A stretch of 57,081 nt of DNA, from positions 1 to 57,081 of the forward strand of contig JAQUOF010000003.1 of NCBI GenBank assembly GCA_028717225.1. Reading direction: 5' to 3'. The translations under genes were made by a program, and so were the position numbers. Origin of the DNA: Patescibacteria group bacterium. GTDB lineage: Bacteria; Patescibacteriota; Patescibacteriia; UBA2591; JAQUPP01. Below the pieces are notes generated by a model, which saw only the letters and a program-made list of their open reading frames with translations, was not told where the DNA came from and made no database searches. Positions 14,260 through 56,877 of this stretch are shown here, piece by piece. Each line of letters opens with the position of its first letter. Positions within the stretch are counted from its first letter, which is position 1.

Positions 14260-14334
14260 TGGTAGCAGGGGCGGGGATCGAACCCGCGACGGCACGCTTA
14301 TGAAGCGTGTGCTCTACCGCTGAGCTACCCTGCC
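14260..14334 (-). tRNA. tRNA with CAT anticodon (elongator Met or Ile2/lysidine type), CCA encoded
   Basis: Reverse complement GGCAGGGTAGCTCAGCGGTAGAGCACACGCTTCATAAGCGTGCCGTCGCGGGTTCGATCCCCGCCCCTGCTACCA folds as a 75-nt cloverleaf. Confidence 0.9.
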
Positions 14335-14367
14335 ATCATTTTGTTAAGACCTGCTTAAAATTTTTAA

Positions 14368-14440
14368 TTGCGGGGGTTGGATTCGAACCAACGACCTCCA
14401 GGTTATGGGCCTGGCGAGCTGCCAGCTGCTCTACCCCGCG
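14368..14440 (-). tRNA. Initiator tRNA-fMet (CAT), CCA not encoded
   Basis: Reverse complement CGCGGGGTAGAGCAGCTGGCAGCTCGCCAGGCCCATAACCTGGAGGTCGTTGGTTCGAATCCAACCCCCGCAA. C1xA72 mismatch and close resemblance to E. coli tRNA-fMet. Confidence 0.9.
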
Positions 14441-14505
14441 TCATTAATCTATAATAATACCTTAAATTTGATATTTCAGCAAATTAAATTTATTTTTTAA
14501 AATTC

Positions 14506-14593
14506 TGGTGCCGCGGGAGGGAGTCGAACCCTCATGGGCGTAAAGCCCATACGATTTTGAGTCGTACGCGTATACCAATTCCACCACCGCGGC
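14506..14593 (-). tRNA. tRNA-Leu (CAA), long variable arm, CCA encoded
   Basis: Perfect acceptor stem GCCGCGG/CCGCGGC, anticodon loop CTCAAAA, variable arm TGGGCTTTACGCCCATG. Confidence 0.9.
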
Positions 14594-14657: not shown

Positions 14658-15419
14658 GTGAAAATTATCAGTGTTGTCAATCAAAAAGGCGGTACGGCGA
14701 AAACCACCACCTTGATCAACTTGTCAGCTTATCTTGCCCGATTCGGCAAGAAAGTTTTGATTATTGATTTGGACCCGCAAGCCAATGCCAGTTCCGGATT
14801 GGGGGTGAGCGCGGAAAACAGAGACAAGGGGATTTATGAAATTCTAAGCGGAAAAATTCCTTTGACCGAAGGTCTAATAGAAGTCAGAAAAAATTTTTGG
14901 CTTATTCCGGCAAATGAAAATTTGGCCGGAGCGAATATTGAAATAGTCAATTTGGAAGATAGAGAATTTCTTTTGACAAAAGCGCTTAAGCCTTTGGCGG
15001 ACGATTTTGATTTTGTATTTTTTGACACCCCTCCTTCATTGGGATTAATGACTATTAACAGTTTGGTTGCTTCAAGCAGCGTTTTAATTCCTGTTCAAGC
15101 AGAATATTTCGCTTTGGAAGGATTGGGTCAGCTTTTAAATACTATTAATTTGATAAAAGAAAATTTAAGACCGGATCTCAGCGTTTTGGGAGCGATACTG
15201 ACAATGTATGACACGCGCGGAAAATTGTCGGCTGACGTCTGGGAAGAATTATATAAATTTTTTCCGCATAAAATTTACAGAACAGTTATTCCTCGCAATG
15301 TTTATTTGGCCGAAGCGCCGAGCTATGGCAAAACAATTTTAGAATATGCGCCTCGATCTCGCGGAGCCAAAGCTTACCATCGCTTAGCCAGAGAGTTTGT
15401 TTTACATAATAATAATTGA
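14658..15419 (+). CDS. parA: Chromosome partitioning ATPase ParA/Soj (GTG start)
   Basis: Deviant Walker A NQKGGTAKTT; DLDPQANAS. Confidence 0.9.
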   Translation: MKIISVVNQKGGTAKTTTLINLSAYLARFGKKVLIIDLDPQANASSGLGVSAENRDKGIYEILSGKIPLTEGLIEVRKNFWLIPANENLAGANIEIVNLEDREFLLTKALKPLADDFDFVFFDTPPSLGLMTINSLVASSSVLIPVQAEYFALEGLGQLLNTINLIKENLRPDLSVLGAILTMYDTRGKLSADVWEELYKFFPHKIYRTVIPRNVYLAEAPSYGKTILEYAPRSRGAKAYHRLAREFVLHNNN

Positions 15420-15457
15420 TTTTGTCTCCGGACGTTAAGTCGGAGCAACAAAATCTT

Positions 15458-15729
15458 TACCGAGCACTCAATTTATTCTTTTTATGTATTACGTATATAT
15501 AATCAAGAATCAGATAAAGAAAAAAATATATATTGGCTACACCGATGATTTAAAAAGAAGAATAAAAGAACATAAAAATAAAGATCCCGAACTTATTTAT
15601 TACGAAGCATACAAGTTAGAAAAAGACGCGAGAAATCGAGAGAGAAAATTGAAACAAAGAGGTCAAGCAATTCGTCATCTCAAAGAACGTCTTAAATCCA
15701 GTCTAGAGGAATAAATTGAGTGCTCGGTA
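15458..15729 (+). mobile_element. GIY-YIG ORF enclosed by a 20-bp perfect inverted repeat (putative selfish insertion between parA and parB)
   Basis: TACCGAGCACTCAATTTATT (15458-15477) is the exact reverse complement of 15710-15729. The same core recurs as a cargo-less hairpin at 19830-19875. Confidence 0.6.
15484..15714 (+). CDS. GIY-YIG nuclease-domain protein (76 aa, YhbQ/UPF0213-like)
   Basis: YYVYIIKN...IYIGYTDDLKRRIKEH is the GIY-YIG motif. The stop codon lies inside the right inverted repeat. Confidence 0.8.
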   Translation: MYYVYIIKNQIKKKIYIGYTDDLKRRIKEHKNKDPELIYYEAYKLEKDARNRERKLKQRGQAIRHLKERLKSSLEE

Positions 15730-15790
15730 CGCAAAATTATAGTTAAATTTCCTTCGTTATAAATAACTCGTAAATTTAAATAATTTTACT

Positions 15791-16639
15791 ATGTCATTAG
15801 GAAGAGGACTGGGGGCGTTAATTCCTCCAAAAACAATTCAAAAAATAACCGAAGAAACGTTAGCCGAAACAGGCGAGCGAGTTTTAGAAATTCCGCTTGA
15901 ACAAATTGAAGCCAATCCTGATCAGCCGAGAAAAAATTTTCCTCATCAAGAAATGGAAGGATTGATTAATTCTCTCCGCGAATACGGAATTATTCAACCT
16001 CTGATTTTAACTTCAATTGGTTGGGGAAAATATCAGATTGTTGCCGGCGAGCGTCGTTTCAGAGCGGCTAAATTTTTGGAATTTAAAACAGTGCCGGCTA
16101 TTGTCAGATCAGTTAAAGACAGCGAAAAATTTGAAATTTCTCTTTTGGAAAATATTCAAAGACAAGATTTGAATCCCATGGAAAGAGCTCGTGCTTACAA
16201 GCGATTGACTGATGAATTTAATTTAACTCAAGAAGATATTGCCAGAAAATTGGGAAAAGCACGAACAAGTGTGGCAAATACTTTGCGCCTTTTAACTCTT
16301 GCCGAACCGATTCAGAGGGCGATTGAAGAAGAACAAATTACCGAAGGCCATGCCAAGGCCTTGCTTTCCACGGAAGATCAGGAAAAACAAAAAATTTTAT
16401 TAAAAAGAGTTTTGGGATTGAATTTAACCGTGCGGGAGACGGAAAAAATTGTTGGCGGAAAAAGAGTCAGGAAAACCGTTGAATTGGATTCCATGCTTTT
16501 GGAAAACGAAAGGGAATTGGCGAAAATTTTGGACGCGAAAATAAAAATTATCAAAAAGAAAAAAGGCGGAAAGATTGTGATTGAAACTTTCAGCCAGGAA
16601 GATTTGGAAGCAATAATTCAAAAATTATTCAAGTGCTAA
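15791..16639 (+). CDS. parB: Chromosome partitioning protein ParB/Spo0J
   Basis: GLGRGLGALI start, ParB box IVAGERRFRAAK, HTH region. Confidence 0.9.
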   Translation: MSLGRGLGALIPPKTIQKITEETLAETGERVLEIPLEQIEANPDQPRKNFPHQEMEGLINSLREYGIIQPLILTSIGWGKYQIVAGERRFRAAKFLEFKTVPAIVRSVKDSEKFEISLLENIQRQDLNPMERARAYKRLTDEFNLTQEDIARKLGKARTSVANTLRLLTLAEPIQRAIEEEQITEGHAKALLSTEDQEKQKILLKRVLGLNLTVRETEKIVGGKRVRKTVELDSMLLENERELAKILDAKIKIIKKKKGGKIVIETFSQEDLEAIIQKLFKC

Positions 16640-16646
16640 AATAAAA

Positions 16647-16688
16647 TAAAAAAATAATCCGTCGATTTTGCGACGGATTATTTTTTTA
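16647..16688. terminator. Bidirectional intrinsic terminator
   Basis: AATAATCCGTCG-ATTTTG-CGACGGATTATT stem flanked by A and T runs, between convergent parB and topA. Confidence 0.8.
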
Positions 16689-16703
16689 TTTTTAAAAATT
16701 TAT

Positions 16704-18926: not shown

Positions 18927-19770
18927 AATTTCCGCCTCCCAGGTTTTTTACTTTGCCGTTTATTTCCATTAATGTCAAGACGGTAATGGCCTGACTGGTG
19001 CTAAATTTACTTGATTTAATTAATTGGTCAATATGCACGGGCTCATGGCTTAAAAATTTCCATAATATTTTTTCTTCCGGCAAAGTCGGTTCGGGCGTTT
19101 CGGAAATTTTTTCCGACAGTTCCAAATTAAAAGCGTCCAAAATATCTTCGGCTTTGGTAACCGCTTTCGCGCCCATTTTAATCAGTTGATTGCAGCCGGC
19201 TGAATTCGGATTATAAATGCTGCCGGGCACGGCGAAAACTTCCCGTCCTTGATCCAAAGCTGAATGCGCGGTAATCAAAGCTCCGGATTTTTCCGGCGCT
19301 TCTATGACCAAAGTTCCCAATGAAAGTCCGGCGATAATTCTGTTTCTGGCCGGAAATGTCCATCTGGTTGGCGAAGTGGTCGGCTGATATTCCGAAACTA
19401 TTGCCCCGTTATTTTTAATAATATTTTTTGCCAAAGTTCTGTGAAGTGGTGGATAAATAATATCAGGACTTGAACCCAAAACAGCGATTGTTCGGCCGCC
19501 GTTATCAAGAGTTGTTTGATGCGCCAGTCCGTCCACGCCCAAAGCTAAACCGCTAACAATCGTTAATCCGGCTTTGACCAAATCTTTAGTCAAAGAAACG
19601 GTAATTTGCTTGCCATAACTTGAAACTTTTCGTGTTCCGACGATTGCCAAGGGATAATTTTCTTCCGCCTTGATTTCTCCGATGGCGTACAGGTTCTGCG
19701 GCGGGTCGTAAATTTCTTTCAGCAGTTTTGGATAATTTTTATCTTTGAGATTAATTTTTAAAACTTGCAT
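18913..19770 (-). CDS. dprA: DNA processing protein DprA/Smf
   Basis: AIVGTRK.S.YG, GLALGVDG.AH and GALITA blocks. Overlaps the topA start. Confidence 0.85.
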   Translation of the reverse strand: MQVLKINLKDKNYPKLLKEIYDPPQNLYAIGEIKAEENYPLAIVGTRKVSSYGKQITVSLTKDLVKAGLTIVSGLALGVDGLAHQTTLDNGGRTIAVLGSSPDIIYPPLHRTLAKNIIKNNGAIVSEYQPTTSPTRWTFPARNRIIAGLSLGTLVIEAPEKSGALITAHSALDQGREVFAVPGSIYNPNSAGCNQLIKMGAKAVTKAEDILDAFNLELSEKISETPEPTLPEEKILWKFLSHEPVHIDQLIKSSKFSTSQAITVLTLMEINGKVKNLGGGNYVKN

Positions 19771-19782
19771 AATTTGTTAAAA

Positions 19783-19920
19783 TTTTAGAGTCCGAAAGGG
19801 TGAATAGAAATTTTATTACAAATTAGAGCACCGAGCACTCAATTTTTCTTAAGCAAGAAAAATTGAGTGCTCGGTCAAGGTTTTGTTACCAAATTTTTTA
19901 TGTCCTTCGGACTTTAAAAT
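19783..19920. repeat. Long imperfect palindrome with a 21-bp perfect inner stem (cargo-less relative of the GIY-YIG element)
   Basis: Inner stem ACCGAGCACTCAATTTTTCTT (19830-19850) pairs with 19855-19875, loop AAGC. Outer arms TTTTAGAGTCCGAAAGG / CCTTCGGACTTTAAAA also pair. Confidence 0.75.
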
Positions 19921-19934
19921 TTGGACAAAAGCTC

Positions 19935-23149: not shown

Positions 23150-23175
23150 ATAAAAAAAGTGTAGAATAAATTGGT

Positions 23176-24639
23176 ATGAATTTACAAAAAGTGGAAAAAA
23201 TACATTTTATCGGTTTGGGCGGAATTGGGGTTAGCGCTTTGGCGAAAATGATGGTTCAACAGGGCAAAAAAGTTTTTGGCTCTGATTTGAATTCTTCGGA
23301 AATAATCAAGAAACTGGAAAAAATGGGAGTTAAATTTTATCAAGGCCATAAAGCGGAAAATTTGTCAGTTGATACTGATTTGGTTATTTATTCTCCGGCT
23401 GTGGAAAAAAATAATCCGGAAAGAATAAAAGCGAAAAAATTATCAATTCCCCAGCTTTCTTATCCTGAATTTTTGGGAGAATTAAGCAAAGAAAAATTTA
23501 CCATTGCTGTCAGCGGCACGCACGGTAAAAGCACCACCACGGCGATTTTGGGTTTGATTTTGGAACAAGCCGAATTGGATCCATTAGTGATTGTCGGAAG
23601 CAAGGTGCCTCAATGGAATGGAAATCTACGCATGACACAGACCGACACAGACGGAACACGGACTGGCACGGAATGTCAGTGTAGGTCAGTGTCCGGTCCG
23701 TGTAAGTCTGTGTTTGTGGTGGAATCCTGCGAATGGCGTGCGCATATGTTGAATTTATCGCCCAAAATGATTATTTTGAATAATTTAGAATTGGATCACA
23801 CAGATTATTATAAAGACATTAATCATTTAATCAGGACTTTTAAAACATATATTAAAAAATTACCCAAAGACGGAATTATAATTTTAAACTCCGACGATTC
23901 TAATTTAAAAAAACTCCATTCAAAAAGCAAGACAATAACTTTTGGCGTTAAAAATCAAGCCGAAGTAATGGCAAAAAATATTATTACCAAATCGGGCGAA
24001 CAAATTTTTGATTTATGTCTTCATGGAAAAATTTACAATTTTCGGTTAAAAGTTCCGGGAATTTTTAATGTTTACAATGTTTTAGCCGCAACTGCCGGCG
24101 CTTTGGCATTAGGCGTTAAACCTGAAATAATTAAAAAATCCGTAGAAAATTTTTACGGAATTTGGCGAAGATTTGAAAAAGTGGGGGAATATAAAAAAGC
24201 GATTATTATTTCTGATTACGCTCATCATCCGACTGCTGTTTCCGGCACTATTCAGGCGGCTAAAGAATTTTATCCCGAAAAAAGAATTATGGCCGTTTTT
24301 CAGCCCCATCATCACAACCGAACCAAAAAATTATTTAAGGAATTTATCAAATGTTTCAAAGGCGCTGATTTAACGATTATTTCGGAAATTTACGATGTGG
24401 CGGGTCGAGAAGAAGAAAAAGACCAAGATGTCAGTTCAAAAGATTTAGTCAAAGCAATTCGCGCTAGATATAAAAAAATTCCAAATTCCAAATTCCAAAT
24501 TCCAAATTCCAAAAATGTTTTATATGCTAAAAATTTAGTAGAAGTCAAAAAACTAATATTAAAGAACATAAAGCCAGGCGACATAGTCCTTATCATGGGA
24601 GCAGGGGATATTTTTGAAGTTGCCAATGATTTAGTTTAA
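23176..24639 (+). CDS. murC: UDP-N-acetylmuramate--L-alanine ligase MurC
   Basis: IHFIGLGGIGVSALA, GTHGKSTTT P-loop, NLELDHTDYY, C-terminal MGAGDI. Confidence 0.9.
   Translation: MNLQKVEKIHFIGLGGIGVSALAKMMVQQGKKVFGSDLNSSEIIKKLEKMGVKFYQGHKAENLSVDTDLVIYSPAVEKNNPERIKAKKLSIPQLSYPEFLGELSKEKFTIAVSGTHGKSTTTAILGLILEQAELDPLVIVGSKVPQWNGNLRMTQTDTDGTRTGTECQCRSVSGPCKSVFVVESCEWRAHMLNLSPKMIILNNLELDHTDYYKDINHLIRTFKTYIKKLPKDGIIILNSDDSNLKKLHSKSKTITFGVKNQAEVMAKNIITKSGEQIFDLCLHGKIYNFRLKVPGIFNVYNVLAATAGALALGVKPEIIKKSVENFYGIWRRFEKVGEYKKAIIISDYAHHPTAVSGTIQAAKEFYPEKRIMAVFQPHHHNRTKKLFKEFIKCFKGADLTIISEIYDVAGREEEKDQDVSSKDLVKAIRARYKKIPNSKFQIPNSKNVLYAKNLVEVKKLILKNIKPGDIVLIMGAGDIFEVANDLV
23634..23719 (+). repeat. GC-rich imperfect palindrome translated in frame within murC
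   Basis: Arms ACACAGACGGAACACGGACTGG / CCGGTCCGTGTAAGTCTGTGT. Encodes MTQTDTDGTRTGTECQCRSVSGPCKS between conserved MurC blocks. Confidence 0.7.
24476..24510 (+). repeat. (AAATTCC)x5 perfect tandem heptamer inside murC
   Basis: Read directly. Translated as IPNSKFQIPNSK. Confidence 0.9.
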
Positions 24640-24710: not shown

Positions 24711-25412
24711 ATGACTCAAAGGCAAAATCAATTGCTTAAAACTATTATCTCTCAATATATCAAAACCGCAGAGCCGATCGGGTCTGAATATTTGGCGGAA
24801 AAATTTGAGTCGAAAATAAGTTCAGCCACTATTCGCAATGAGATGGCAGAATTAACTACAAATGGTTTTTTGGCTCAGCCGCATACTTCGGCCGGCCGCA
24901 TTCCCACTGAAAAAGCTTATCATTATTATATTGAAAATTTTTTACAGCAAGAAGAAGTCAGTCAAATTGAAAAAAGAAAATTAAACAGCGTTAAAAAAGA
25001 AAATCAATCTTTGGAAATTTCAGCCAAGAAAATCGGCGAGAAAATAGCGGAGTTGACCAACGGACTGGTCATTCTGGCTTTTGATAAAAATAATTTTTAT
25101 TATACCGGACTTTCTTCTTTATTCAGCCAGCCGGAATTCAATCAAATGGATGTGGTTTATAATGTTTCGCAAATCATAGATCATCTGGATCAAACCGTTG
25201 CCAAAATTTTTGACGAGATAGAAAGCAATCACCGCGTTTTTTTGGGACAAAGCAATCCTTTCGGTGATTTTTGCGGAACAATTTTAATCAAATATCATAC
25301 GCCAAATCAAAAAAGAGGCGTAGTATTGGGTCTTTTGGGGCCGATGAGAATGGATTATAATAGAAATATCGCTTTAATAGAATACGCCAAAGAAATATTG
25401 GACAAAGTTTAA
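24711..25412 (+). CDS. hrcA: Heat-inducible repressor HrcA (short, 233 aa)
   Basis: RQNQLLKTIISQYIKTAEPIGSEYLAEK wHTH, IRNEMAELT..GFL.QPHTSAGRIPT. Sits at the head of grpE-dnaK with CIRCE upstream. Confidence 0.85.
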   Translation: MTQRQNQLLKTIISQYIKTAEPIGSEYLAEKFESKISSATIRNEMAELTTNGFLAQPHTSAGRIPTEKAYHYYIENFLQQEEVSQIEKRKLNSVKKENQSLEISAKKIGEKIAELTNGLVILAFDKNNFYYTGLSSLFSQPEFNQMDVVYNVSQIIDHLDQTVAKIFDEIESNHRVFLGQSNPFGDFCGTILIKYHTPNQKRGVVLGLLGPMRMDYNRNIALIEYAKEILDKV

Positions 25413-25416
25413 ATTT

Positions 25417-38720: not shown

Positions 38721-38726
38721 TTATTA

Positions 38727-39605
38727 TTGGGTATGATACTTTCTATTATTATTGTCAATTGGAATGTTAAAAAATTATTGGAAAAATGTTTGAACTCCAT
38801 TTTTAAAAATGTTGACGGATTGGATTATGAAGTTTGGGTGGTTGATAATAATTCAGCAGACGGCTCGAGAGAATATTTGAAAAGTTTAATCAGTCAGAAT
38901 GAAAATTTAAAAGTGATTTTAAACGAACAGAATATCGGTTTTGCCAAAGCCAATAATCAAGCGCTTAAAGAAGCCACAGGAGAATTTGTTTTGCTTTTAA
39001 ATCCGGACACGGAAATTATCGGCAATACTTTGCAAACAACTGTTCAATTTATGCAGTATAATCAAGATTGCGGCGTTTTGGGGGGCAAATTAATCGGTCG
39101 AGACGATAAAATACAAAAGTCAGTCAGAAGTTTTCCGACAATTCTTTCGCAAGCGATGGTTTTTTTAAAATTTCATCGTTTTTTCTATAAAGTGAAAATT
39201 CTAAAAGATTATTTTCAAACTGATTTTGATTACGAAAAAATAAGCGAAGTTGACCAAGTAATGGGCGCTTTTTTAATGACCAAAAAAGAAGTTTTGGAAA
39301 AAGTCGGTTTATTGGATGAGAAATTCTGGTTATGGTTTGAAGAAGTTGATTTTTGCAAAAGAGTGAAAGAAGCGGGCTATAAGGTGATTTATTATCCAAA
39401 TGCCGCGATATTTCATTACGGCGCGCAAAGTTTTCGCCAGATGTTATCTTGCCCGAAACAGCGCACCTACAACCGGAGCACCATTTATTATTTTAAAAAA
39501 CATTCCCGCTTTGTTTCATATTGGCCGCTTTTGATTTTAAATCCAATCAGTTTATTTTTAGCTTGTTTAGTTCAAATTTTTTCTTTCCGCCATGAAAGCC
39601 ATTAA
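38727..39605 (+). CDS. Glycosyltransferase family 2
   Basis: SIIIVNWN...VVDNNSADGS...LLNPD and DEKFWLWFEEVDFC motifs. Confidence 0.85.
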   Translation: MGMILSIIIVNWNVKKLLEKCLNSIFKNVDGLDYEVWVVDNNSADGSREYLKSLISQNENLKVILNEQNIGFAKANNQALKEATGEFVLLLNPDTEIIGNTLQTTVQFMQYNQDCGVLGGKLIGRDDKIQKSVRSFPTILSQAMVFLKFHRFFYKVKILKDYFQTDFDYEKISEVDQVMGAFLMTKKEVLEKVGLLDEKFWLWFEEVDFCKRVKEAGYKVIYYPNAAIFHYGAQSFRQMLSCPKQRTYNRSTIYYFKKHSRFVSYWPLLILNPISLFLACLVQIFSFRHESH

Positions 39606-42900: not shown

Positions 42901-42940
42901 TTTGCTAAATTTTGAAAATTTGTTATAATAATTTGAATAT

Positions 42941-43011
42941 TGCGGGATCGTCTAATGGTAGGACTCCAGCCTTTGGAGCTGGCTATGATGGTTCGAATCC
43001 ATCTCCCGCAG
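42941..43011 (+). tRNA. tRNA-Gln (TTG), CCA not encoded
   Basis: TGCGGGATCGTCTAATGGTAGGACTCCAGCCTTTGGAGCTGGCTATGATGGTTCGAATCCATCTCCCGCAG. U1-A72, anticodon loop CTTTGGA. Confidence 0.9.
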
Positions 43012-48856: not shown

Positions 48857-48898
48857 TAGTACACTTATTTTACACGGCCGTGTAAAATAAGTGTACTA
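48857..48898. repeat. 42-bp perfect palindrome TAGTACACTTATTTTACACGG|CCGTGTAAAATAAGTGTACTA
   Basis: Read directly. Centre lies about 52 bp upstream of the -35 at 48929. Related copy at 56806-56845. Confidence 0.9.
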
Positions 48899-50254: not shown

Positions 50255-50397
50255 TTGACCCCACCACCTAGAAATTATATTTTTTAATGCGAAATATAAA
50301 TTAAATTTATGATTTATTAGATCTTTTTATTAAAAAAATATAATTTAATTAAAAACATAAAATTGAGCATTATAATTTCTGGGTGGTGGGGTTGACA
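50255..50397 (+). repeat. Structured spacer element E2 (TTGACCCC...GGGGTTGACA), 143 bp
   Basis: Terminal inverted repeat CCCCACCACCTAGAAATTATA / TATAATTTCTGGGTGGTGGGG. The interior is the reverse complement of E3. The 3' TTGACA plus N16 plus TATAAT forms a promoter. Confidence 0.8.
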
Positions 50398-50481: not shown

Positions 50482-50886
50482 ATGAGAAATTTTTTGAAGT
50501 TGGGAATGTCAGTTGCCTTGGGATTTATTCTCTGCAATATTTTTCTGGCCAATCCGGTCAGAGCAGAATTATCGGTTCCTGATGTAATGACCGTAACACA
50601 ATCAAAAGACCTTGATTGTGTTACAAATCCAAGTTATATCATCAATGCTGATTCGGTAATCTTGGATTTAGTGGAATCAAAAATAATTATTGAATGGGGT
50701 TCTTTAATAGTTATTGATTCTACGGGGCAAAAAACTGTGGAAATACAAATGAAACGAGGAATTGTTTTTTTAGATAGTACGTGGAATACTATCTATCTGG
50801 TAAAAAATTTGAATGATTTTGTTATATTTGCTGCGAATAATGGTAAATACAATAAAATTAAGGAGGGGAAAATAGAGAAATATTAA
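50482..50886 (+). CDS. Hypothetical secreted protein (134 aa)
   Basis: Signal peptide MRNFLKLGMSVALGFILCNIFLANPVRA, SD GGGAGG. Confidence 0.6.
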   Translation: MRNFLKLGMSVALGFILCNIFLANPVRAELSVPDVMTVTQSKDLDCVTNPSYIINADSVILDLVESKIIIEWGSLIVIDSTGQKTVEIQMKRGIVFLDSTWNTIYLVKNLNDFVIFAANNGKYNKIKEGKIEKY

Positions 50887-50928: not shown

Positions 50929-51073
50929 TTGACCCCACCACCAAGAAATTATAATGCTCAATTTTATGTTTTTAGTTAAATTATATTTTTTTAATAAAAA
51001 ATTCTAATAAATCATAAATTCAATTTTATACTTCGCATTAAAAAAATATAATTTCTAGGTGGTGGGGTGGACA
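50929..51073 (+). repeat. Structured spacer element E3 (TTGACCCC...GGGGTGGACA), 145 bp, inverted copy of E2
   Basis: The interior reverse complement aligns with E2 along its full length, with about 8 differences by eye. The 3' TGGACA plus N17 plus TATACT forms a leaderless promoter. Confidence 0.8.
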
Positions 51074-56768: not shown

Positions 56769-56800
56769 AAGGGTAGGTTTTGCCTACCCTTTTGATTTTT
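56769..56800 (+). terminator. Intrinsic terminator
   Basis: AAGGGTAGG-TTTTG-CCTACCCTT plus T-run. Confidence 0.8.
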
Positions 56801-56805
56801 CTAAA

Positions 56806-56845
56806 TATACACTTATTTTTCACGGCCGTGAAAAATAAGTGTATA
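56806..56845. repeat. 40-bp perfect palindrome TATACACTTATTTTTCACGG|CCGTGAAAAATAAGTGTATA
   Basis: Differs from the 48857 copy at two positions per arm, mirrored in both arms. Centre lies about 52 bp upstream of the -35 at 56878. Confidence 0.9.
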
Positions 56846-56877
56846 AATATAAAGAAGAAAAGATGTTAATAACTTTT

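Follow-up and report, generated by a model that had tools for sequence, protein, structure and literature searches.

A stand-alone GIY-YIG nuclease gene in a three-hairpin insertion between parA and parB of a Patescibacteria genome, and its dispersed gene-less relatives

Insertions between parA and parB and ahead of dprA

The window analyzed here is a 57,081-nt stretch (contig JAQUOF010000003.1) of the 864-kb, 35% GC genome of a Patescibacteria group bacterium, designated G000, which was compared with the genomes of two other species of the same genus, G001 and G002. A gap of 371 bp separates parA from parB, and it holds, as the initial annotation had described, an ORF for a 76-aa GIY-YIG protein bracketed by an inverted repeat (Table 1). 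The repeat is indeed perfect, and its length, first given as 20 bp, is 21 bp; the left arm reads TACCGAGCACTCAATTTATTC and the right arm is its exact complement, with the stop codon of the ORF (TAA, 15712-15714) lying inside the right arm as had been reported. A gene-less second copy had been recognized as a hairpin with a 4-nt loop, and this reading held, the arms being the same as those of the first copy and forming a perfect 21-bp stem around the loop AAGC. Its extent did not hold, since the element ahead of dprA covers 19765-19933 (169 bp) rather than 19783-19920. The parA-parB element is referred to below as W1 and the dprA element as W2. Both share the flanking sequence AACAAAA(C/T)CTT(G/T)ACCGAGC, on the opposite strand at W2. 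The 14-nt core of the repeat has four exact matches in the window against 0.22 expected by chance, and six at up to two mismatches, a number reached in none of 100 shuffles. In the whole 864-kb genome the exact core is confined to the four arms of W1 and W2. A promoter scan placed a promoter-like TTGAGT-16-TATAGT at 15716-15743, spanning the right arm of W1 and its terminal hairpin, which may drive the downstream host gene.

Comparison with the two congeners was possible at high similarity, with about 93-96% DNA identity in both flanks of each of the two sites, ParB 99-100% identical to that of the window, and ParA likewise over the aligned residues. Both relatives have parA and parB adjacent without the insert, 9-20 nt apart: the site in G002 consists of just TAA-AGAGTTTTT-ATG, and that in G001 of TAA and a 20-nt spacer equal to the last 20 nt of the terminal hairpin of W1, which is probably a deletion remnant. 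At the W2 site both species have AGGG in place of the element. W2 brings with it a new ATG for dprA, such that the first four codons are replaced by ATG CAA and the protein start MSSPVLKINLK becomes MQVLKINLK. The results showed that W1 and W2 are insertions, and they supported the initial proposal that the nuclease gene is cargo in the loop of a palindromic, MITE-like element, both forms being missing at the orthologous sites of the congeners. That proposal had taken the repeat and its cargo as the inserted unit, and in this respect it fell short: the stretches missing from the congeners (15414-15790 and 19765-19933) span more than the arms, so the inserted units exceed the repeat. The unit adds two further hairpins, designated H and T, and fills the space from stop to start codon; thus the 21-bp perfect inverted repeat lies near the ends of the insert, yet H and T outside it belong to the insert as well. 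Relatives carrying the same ORF at this site without the repeats, or hairpins explained as ordinary terminators, would have spoken for another origin; the relatives were found to have no ORF at the site, and the hairpins are not terminators (see below).

Some other features of the window are recorded here. A perfect 22-bp hairpin with the look of a bidirectional terminator lies between the convergent parB and topA (16643-16692), a position where the DNA is longer by ~1.2 kb in G001 and by ~0.5 kb in G002. At 48857-48898 lies a perfect palindrome of 42 bp, formed by TAGTACACTTATTTTACACGG and its complement, with a slightly different second copy at 56789-56862, and this palindrome family is unrelated to the GIY-YIG repeats. 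Lastly, a 95-nt inverted repeat, 95% complementary (50298-50392 and 50932-51026), surrounds a 134-aa ORF (50482-50886) with a hydrophobic N-terminus.

Table 1. Coordinates of the elements, their parts and related loci (window positions unless a contig or locus is named)
Feature	Position	Strand	Basis or remark
parA	14658-15419		
parB	15791-16639		
W1, whole inserted unit (H, repeat with ORF, T), parA stop to parB start	15414-15790	+	absent in G001 and G002
W1 hairpin H, GATTTTGT-CTCCGGACGTTAAGTCGGAG-CAACAAAATC	15418-15455	+	DNA fold; overlaps parA stop codon
W1 left arm of inverted repeat	15458-15478	+	repeat search; contains CGAGCAC box
W1 gene for 76-aa stand-alone GIY-YIG nuclease	15484-15714	+	PF01541, E=4e-12
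W1 right arm of inverted repeat	15709-15729	+	repeat search; contains ORF stop codon
W1 hairpin T	15733-15787	+	DNA fold; ends 3 nt 5' of parB ATG
W2, gene-less element ahead of dprA, 169 bp	19765-19933	-	absent in G001 and G002; three-hairpin fold
W2 hairpin H	19931-19878	-	
W2 repeat, 4-nt loop	19875-19830	-	stem arms 19830-19850 and 19855-19875
W2 hairpin T	19826-19771	-	
Gene-less copy C1	C1:57950-58190		relaxed core search; middle module differs from G001 C1:156623-156891
Gene-less copy C2	C2:31385-31625		relaxed core search
Gene-less copy C21	C21:10240-10440		relaxed core search; middle module differs from G002 L091
Gene-less copy C25	C25:4900-5110		relaxed core search
Gene-less copy C32	C32:1200-1440		relaxed core search
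tRNA-type GIY-YIG loci, G000	C7:24470-25135; C34:3906-4589; C28:6395-7093; C1:61311-61961		
tRNA-type GIY-YIG loci, G001	L076; L078; L081		
tRNA-type GIY-YIG locus, G008	L064		

A dispersed three-hairpin family, its nuclease and its repeat

When the search for the core was relaxed, five further copies were found in G000, giving seven in all, of which W1 alone carries the ORF and six are gene-less; the coexistence of gene-bearing and empty forms in one genome was thus borne out. The five additional copies have 1-3 changed bases in the core (ACCGAGCACTCAGTAT type), and their arms, which begin ACCGAGCACTCAG, stand ~65 nt apart with no ORF between them, the spacer being unrelated to the ORF. In one orientation, a single strand of each of the seven copies folds into three consecutive hairpins, namely H, the repeat and T. 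The outer stem of H (TTTTGT/ACAAAA) is kept in all family copies and in elements of other CPR lineages, its inner hairpin varies, and the stop codon of the gene upstream adjoins H or overlaps with it. The middle hairpin has a long stem, and its loop is formed by the 75-76-aa GIY-YIG gene, by the ~65-nt spacer or by 4 nt; compact hairpins like that of W2 (19830-19875) also adjoin gene-bearing copies in other lineages. T is AT-rich and is followed directly by the host ATG in six of the seven G000 copies, the C21 copy having 6 nt in between. This succession of T and start codon was also seen in the G001 copy and in five elements of other lineages, and at all of these loci, the ones examined for which a host ORF was identifiable, that ORF is co-directional with the element. 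The only ORF of the element is that of the GIY-YIG nuclease, with no transposase of a known class (DDE, HUH, serine or tyrosine recombinase) in it and no other candidate mobility gene associated with the elements. A search of Rfam matched no family to either element, its matches in the window being three tRNAs at 14263-14593. A search of metagenomes with the pattern CCGAGCAC-N(232-260)-GTGCTCGG returned 80 loci, all of them high-GC chance matches (mean GC 68%) without a GIY-YIG gene.

The presence of the copies varies among the three species. C2 is missing in G001 and G002, with the first 11 nt only retained in G001; C25 is missing in G002, and in G001 the start codon concerned carries another hairpin insert, of 122 bp; C32 is missing in G001, and G002 retains H and the last 20 nt of T; at the C1 locus all three species have a copy. 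G001 in addition carries an element 93% identical to W1, with identical arms, at another locus where the G000 site is empty (C14:20574-20601), a finding that backs the mobile-element reading of the initial annotation. The ORF of this element has an in-frame internal deletion (MYYVYIIKNQIKKKIYIGYTDDLKRRLKERLKSSLEE), which shows a way in which gene-less forms can originate. Together, these data showed that the elements insert, vary between sister species, occupy different loci and decay by internal ORF deletion. No target-site duplication was found at W1, W2, C2, C25, C32 or the G001 copy, and instead 4-25 host bases, including first codons, are replaced, so that a simple cut-and-paste transposon fits poorly; the partial remnants of elements that persist in congeners weaken such a model as well. 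At two orthologous loci (Table 1) the left end of H and T are the same in two species and the middle module is different, being of the CGAGCAC type in one and either CCCCTCCTTTT plus an ORF or ACCCGCCCAGATTTTTGG in the other. This suggests that middle modules are exchanged between elements, and it too counts against a simple transposon. Since the middle differs where the outer hairpins are kept, the repeat module and the H/T scaffold may move or recombine separately.

The encoded 76-aa protein matched Pfam family PF01541 over residues 1-62 with E=4.1e-12 and 46.7 bits (cut-off 22.6), and stayed below the cut-off of TIGR01453 (27.4 bits against 56). It belongs to a subfamily of 75-76 aa with more than 1000 homologs, of which the best 120 listed are 67-93% identical to it, and those among the listed homologs that are named by source come from Patescibacteria, e.g., Sungbacteria, Falkowbacteria, Nealsonbacteria and Microgenomates. 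In 30 members of the subfamily Y3, Y5, Y16-I17-G18, R26, H30 and E53 are invariant, as is the basic C-terminal helix. Judged from this conservation, the catalytic set (two Tyr, Arg and the metal-binding Glu) and hence the predicted enzyme are intact, and the protein is under strong purifying selection. The beta-beta-alpha-beta-alpha fold of GIY-YIG nucleases was recovered in an AlphaFold (AF2) model (pLDDT 92), whose strands span residues 2-9, 14-20 and 35-43 and whose helices span 23-29 and 46-75. The best PDB neighbors by Foldseek are 1zg2 and 1ywl (UPF0213), followed by Slx1 and I-TevI, with weak E-values of 0.013 and above, and I-TevI is the best PDB match by sequence. Given the conserved 75-76-aa subfamily, its invariant residues and the GIY-YIG fold, the shortness of the protein is a conserved feature and not a sign of decay. 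Small GIY-YIG genes number from 0 to 17 per genome among 41 relatives. The identical proteins P0027, P0082 and P0088 were considered as cases of multiple insertion sites and were set aside, each being one locus across many samples.

The arms of the repeat were compared across 11 independent gene-bearing elements of other lineages with the same layout. Positions 3-8 of the arm are invariant in the 11 elements, and position 9 has a single exception, in one arm of one of them; together these positions make up a CGAGCAC box. Positions 10, 11 and 14 vary between elements and match between the two arms in all 11 (covariation), and at positions 16-19 the two arms match in 9 of the 11. A bracketing-repeat score of at least 13, which is reached at 0.7% of random genome positions, was attained by 17 of the 62 GIY-YIG loci of relatives and by 29 of the 73 GTDB-wide relatives, nearly all of the latter with at least 44% identity among them. 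Other clades of the protein have other repeat cores (e.g., CCCAGCACCT, ACCCCCACACC, ACCCCGCCC and CCCCCTCTTTT), and protein identity correlated with similarity of the repeat core (Mantel r=0.43, a value reached in 0 of 2000 permutations). At the level of sequence, these comparisons showed conservation of the repeat to go hand in hand with the protein subfamily. Every one of the 13 transition mismatches between arms reads as G.T in the sense strand, an asymmetry that is confounded by base composition, with a T-rich leader standing opposite the purine-rich last codons; it hints that the stem may form in one strand, be it DNA or RNA. As to which strand folds better, a preference for the sense strand was seen for the middle stem in all 11 gene-bearing elements and one for the antisense strand for T in 12 of 16, with none for H, and the fold energies are inconsistent across the hairpins.

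Small GIY-YIG genes also occur in the genus in other settings. Four places in the window (25411-25416, 38725-38727, 23169-23187 and 42925-42952) are empty sites where G001 and/or G002 hold GIY-YIG insertions, these being mini-elements of ~290-330 bp with the repeats CCAGGTAGTGAAACTTTGA, CCCAGTAnnnCAACTTCCAG or GCCCGCCnAAATTTTTTATT, or an insertion in a tRNA D-loop. In three of them the insertion coincides with a start codon and has TATG at either end, the ORF using the host ATG. TATG or AATTATG repeats at the target do occur in GIY-YIG elements of the genus outside the CGAGCAC family. In G000, C15:17783-18031 is a degenerate GIY-YIG ORF (YIG changed to HIG, the RR and EH motifs gone) without a bracketing repeat, located on a start codon with an AATTATG duplication, missing in G001 and present in G002. 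In another GIY-YIG element of that genome, at C38:2880-3300, H resembles the H hairpin of W2 and the repeat (ACCCTGTTAAATAA) is 14 bp long; the corresponding site in G002 has the left half of H only, and in G000 the host gene downstream is longer by nine codons at its N-terminal end, which include the palindrome-like TCCGCCATCTAGCGGA. A further lifestyle is tied to tRNA genes (Table 1), where a duplicated tRNA 5' fragment, its D-arm broken by GC-rich palindromes (e.g., TCCGCCAGCTGGCGGA), is followed by the ORF and then by the intact tRNA. The three tRNA genes upstream of parA in the window (14263-14593) are without such ORFs, and the G001 cluster (L068, 1632-2164) holds two in tandem. Repeat-bracketed GIY-YIG genes of other clades were found inside 16S/23S rRNA-like sequence (L146, L147, L150, L151, L153, L154 and L166), including those of the cultivated Deferribacter thermophilus and of Bacillota MAGs.

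Proposed mechanism and alternative explanations

We consider it reasonably probable that W1 is the sole gene-bearing member in G000 of a very small, three-hairpin mobile family whose copies are moved through recognition of the hairpin by the nuclease. The nuclease would recognize the hairpin with the CGAGCAC box that marks its family, probably in single-stranded DNA like the related Ssn nucleases, and, following the Ssn precedent, would cleave at the hairpin base. The copying or excision would then be completed, and the joining carried out, by replication or repair functions of the host, and the gene-less copies, including the one at 19765-19933, would have been moved in trans. In tightly packed genomes, the survivors would be only those insertions that rebuild the start codon of a host gene. 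To our knowledge, a hydrolytic GIY-YIG enzyme performs no strand transfer by itself, and we know of no DNA-joining route for a hydrolytic nuclease of 76 residues. If the nuclease moves the elements, the mechanism would lie outside the known transposase chemistries and would set a new lower size limit for autonomous mobile DNA. A stronger form of the proposal, which we offer tentatively and regard as doubtful, is that the ~370-bp units are autonomous transposons with the 76-residue hydrolytic nuclease, acting on single-strand hairpins, as their sole enzyme; if true, they would be the smallest self-mobilizing elements known, and GIY-YIG would be a new class of prokaryotic mobility enzyme. In this stronger form, the three-hairpin fold would juxtapose the upstream stop codon and the downstream start codon, such that the element could occupy tightly coupled operons and leave them unbroken.

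The nuclease gene might have a more limited part in the spread of the family. The ORF would then be a parasite resembling a homing endonuclease in the loop of a pre-existing hairpin repeat, the H-repeat-T family would spread by other means, and the nuclease would merely promote the copying of its own gene into gene-less copies, with H and T serving as homology arms. The 6:1 excess of gene-less over gene-bearing copies and the 65-nt spacer unrelated to the ORF are in keeping with this, as are the C21 and C1 loci with their retained H and T and different middle modules, an outcome that gene conversion between dispersed copies would yield. We nevertheless hold this explanation to be unlikely, because the CGAGCAC box, H and T go with the 75-76-aa subfamily even in distant CPR lineages, repeat families follow the clades of the protein, the empty parA-parB site misses the whole H-ORF-T unit, and no other candidate mobility gene accompanies the elements.

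A domesticated system of the Ssn type, in which the nuclease works for the host, for example on incoming or replicating single-stranded DNA that it would cut at dispersed hairpins, and the repeats are its recognition sites, appears quite improbable. The strong purifying selection on the protein would suit such a role, and Ssn nucleases modulate natural transformation in Neisseria via dispersed NTS hairpins (PMC11893778). The gene is, on the other hand, missing in congeners and decaying in G001, its copy number runs from 0 to 17 among close relatives, the genome offers just seven sites, the elements change the start codons of host genes, and the genome contains no match to the published SRM motif.

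Still less probable, in our view, is that the hairpins are not sites of mobility and work chiefly at the RNA level, being terminators, RNase III sites or devices of translational coupling that insulate the inserted gene. All 13 transition mismatches are compatible with G.U pairing on the sense strand, the ends of the elements are flush with the upstream stop and downstream start codons, the W2 stem scores terminator-like, and relatives with other repeat types lie inside rRNA genes, where a long stem could permit excision from the transcript. Against this, structure alone leaves the invariant 7-nt box across lineages unexplained, as it does the scatter of gene-less copies, Rfam had no match, and the mismatch asymmetry is confounded by the base composition of leader and last codons. 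W2 moreover sits in the leader of dprA facing a divergent promoter and so terminates no gene. Intrinsic terminators were rejected for both elements, for W2 on its position between the dprA start and the divergent promoter, its weak T tail and the congener comparison, and for W1 on the 230 nt that separate its arms.

Apart from mechanism, core genes such as parB and dprA in ultra-small CPR genomes have had their start codons and N-termini, and possibly their promoters, rewritten by the insertions, and the annotation and comparison of CPR genes need to allow for these elements. The natural pairs of nuclease and hairpin with a clear CGAGCAC box also constitute material for biochemistry.

Comparison with known systems

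A full-text literature search found a single paper of relevance (Chenal et al., 2025; PMC11893778). Its subject is the Ssn family, single-domain GIY-YIG nucleases 94 aa long (SsnA of Neisseria meningitidis is an example), which bind the NTS/SRM hairpin repeat when it is in single-stranded form and cleave next to it. Such hairpins frequently stand on either side of the ssn genes, a likeness to insertion sequences on which the authors remarked, mobility not having been demonstrated (PMC11893778). The elements described here likewise encode a single-domain GIY-YIG protein of fewer than 100 aa, have cognate hairpin repeats both at the gene and dispersed, and show covariation of nuclease and repeat. 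They differ in that two arms of one repeat span the gene, whereas ssn genes have a complete hairpin on each side, and in the extra H and T hairpins, the length of 76 aa without a loop after the EH motif, the seven copies as against hundreds, and the insertion polymorphism, which is shown here and not for Ssn. The SRM motif (HGTCWY-N(0-2)-YYVSBRH-N(0-5)-WNVSBRG-N(0-2)-RNCYNB) had no match on either strand of the 864-kb genome, shuffled genomes giving 0-3. With this paper in view, the initial statement that such genes were undescribed holds for the architecture, the protein subfamily and the evidence of mobility, but not for small GIY-YIG genes flanked by hairpins, which Chenal et al. (2025) had reported. 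For Ssn-type single-strand nucleases, a selfish role is likely to be the ancestral state.

Similarity to REP/REPIN-RAYT and IS200/IS605 systems lies in the single small gene within inverted palindromic repeats, the many gene-less hairpin derivatives and the probable recognition of single-strand hairpins. Those systems use an HUH Y1 enzyme with a covalent tyrosine intermediate, whereas the enzyme here is a hydrolytic GIY-YIG nuclease that forms no such intermediate, so that strand transfer cannot work as it does in HUH; nor was a fixed target tetranucleotide seen for the CGAGCAC family. With bacterial MITEs such as the Correia elements of Neisseria and the Rickettsia palindromic elements, they have in common a dispersed occurrence as 150-240-bp units with inverted repeats, near or inside genes, where they sometimes rebuild host coding ends or promoters. 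Such MITEs have no known gene-bearing master copy of comparable size, in contrast to the 370-bp form with its nuclease, and the TA-type target duplication is lacking here. Homing endonucleases (I-TevI, Seg) are also selfish genes with a GIY-YIG core whose presence varies between genomes, but they exceed 200 aa, possess a DNA-binding domain and home into one cognate allele without inverted repeats, whereas the present protein is a single domain of 76 aa whose gene is bracketed by the repeat and found at several loci. The UPF0213 and Slx1-like proteins (BH0048, 1zg2; EF2693, 1ywl) are the closest in fold and similar in size, yet their sequence identity is ~25% and no link to repeats has been reported for them. 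The parA-parB insertion is one well-resolved case from an almost undescribed class of hairpin-bounded mini-elements with a GIY-YIG nuclease as their sole product, and Ssn/NTS is their closest published relative.
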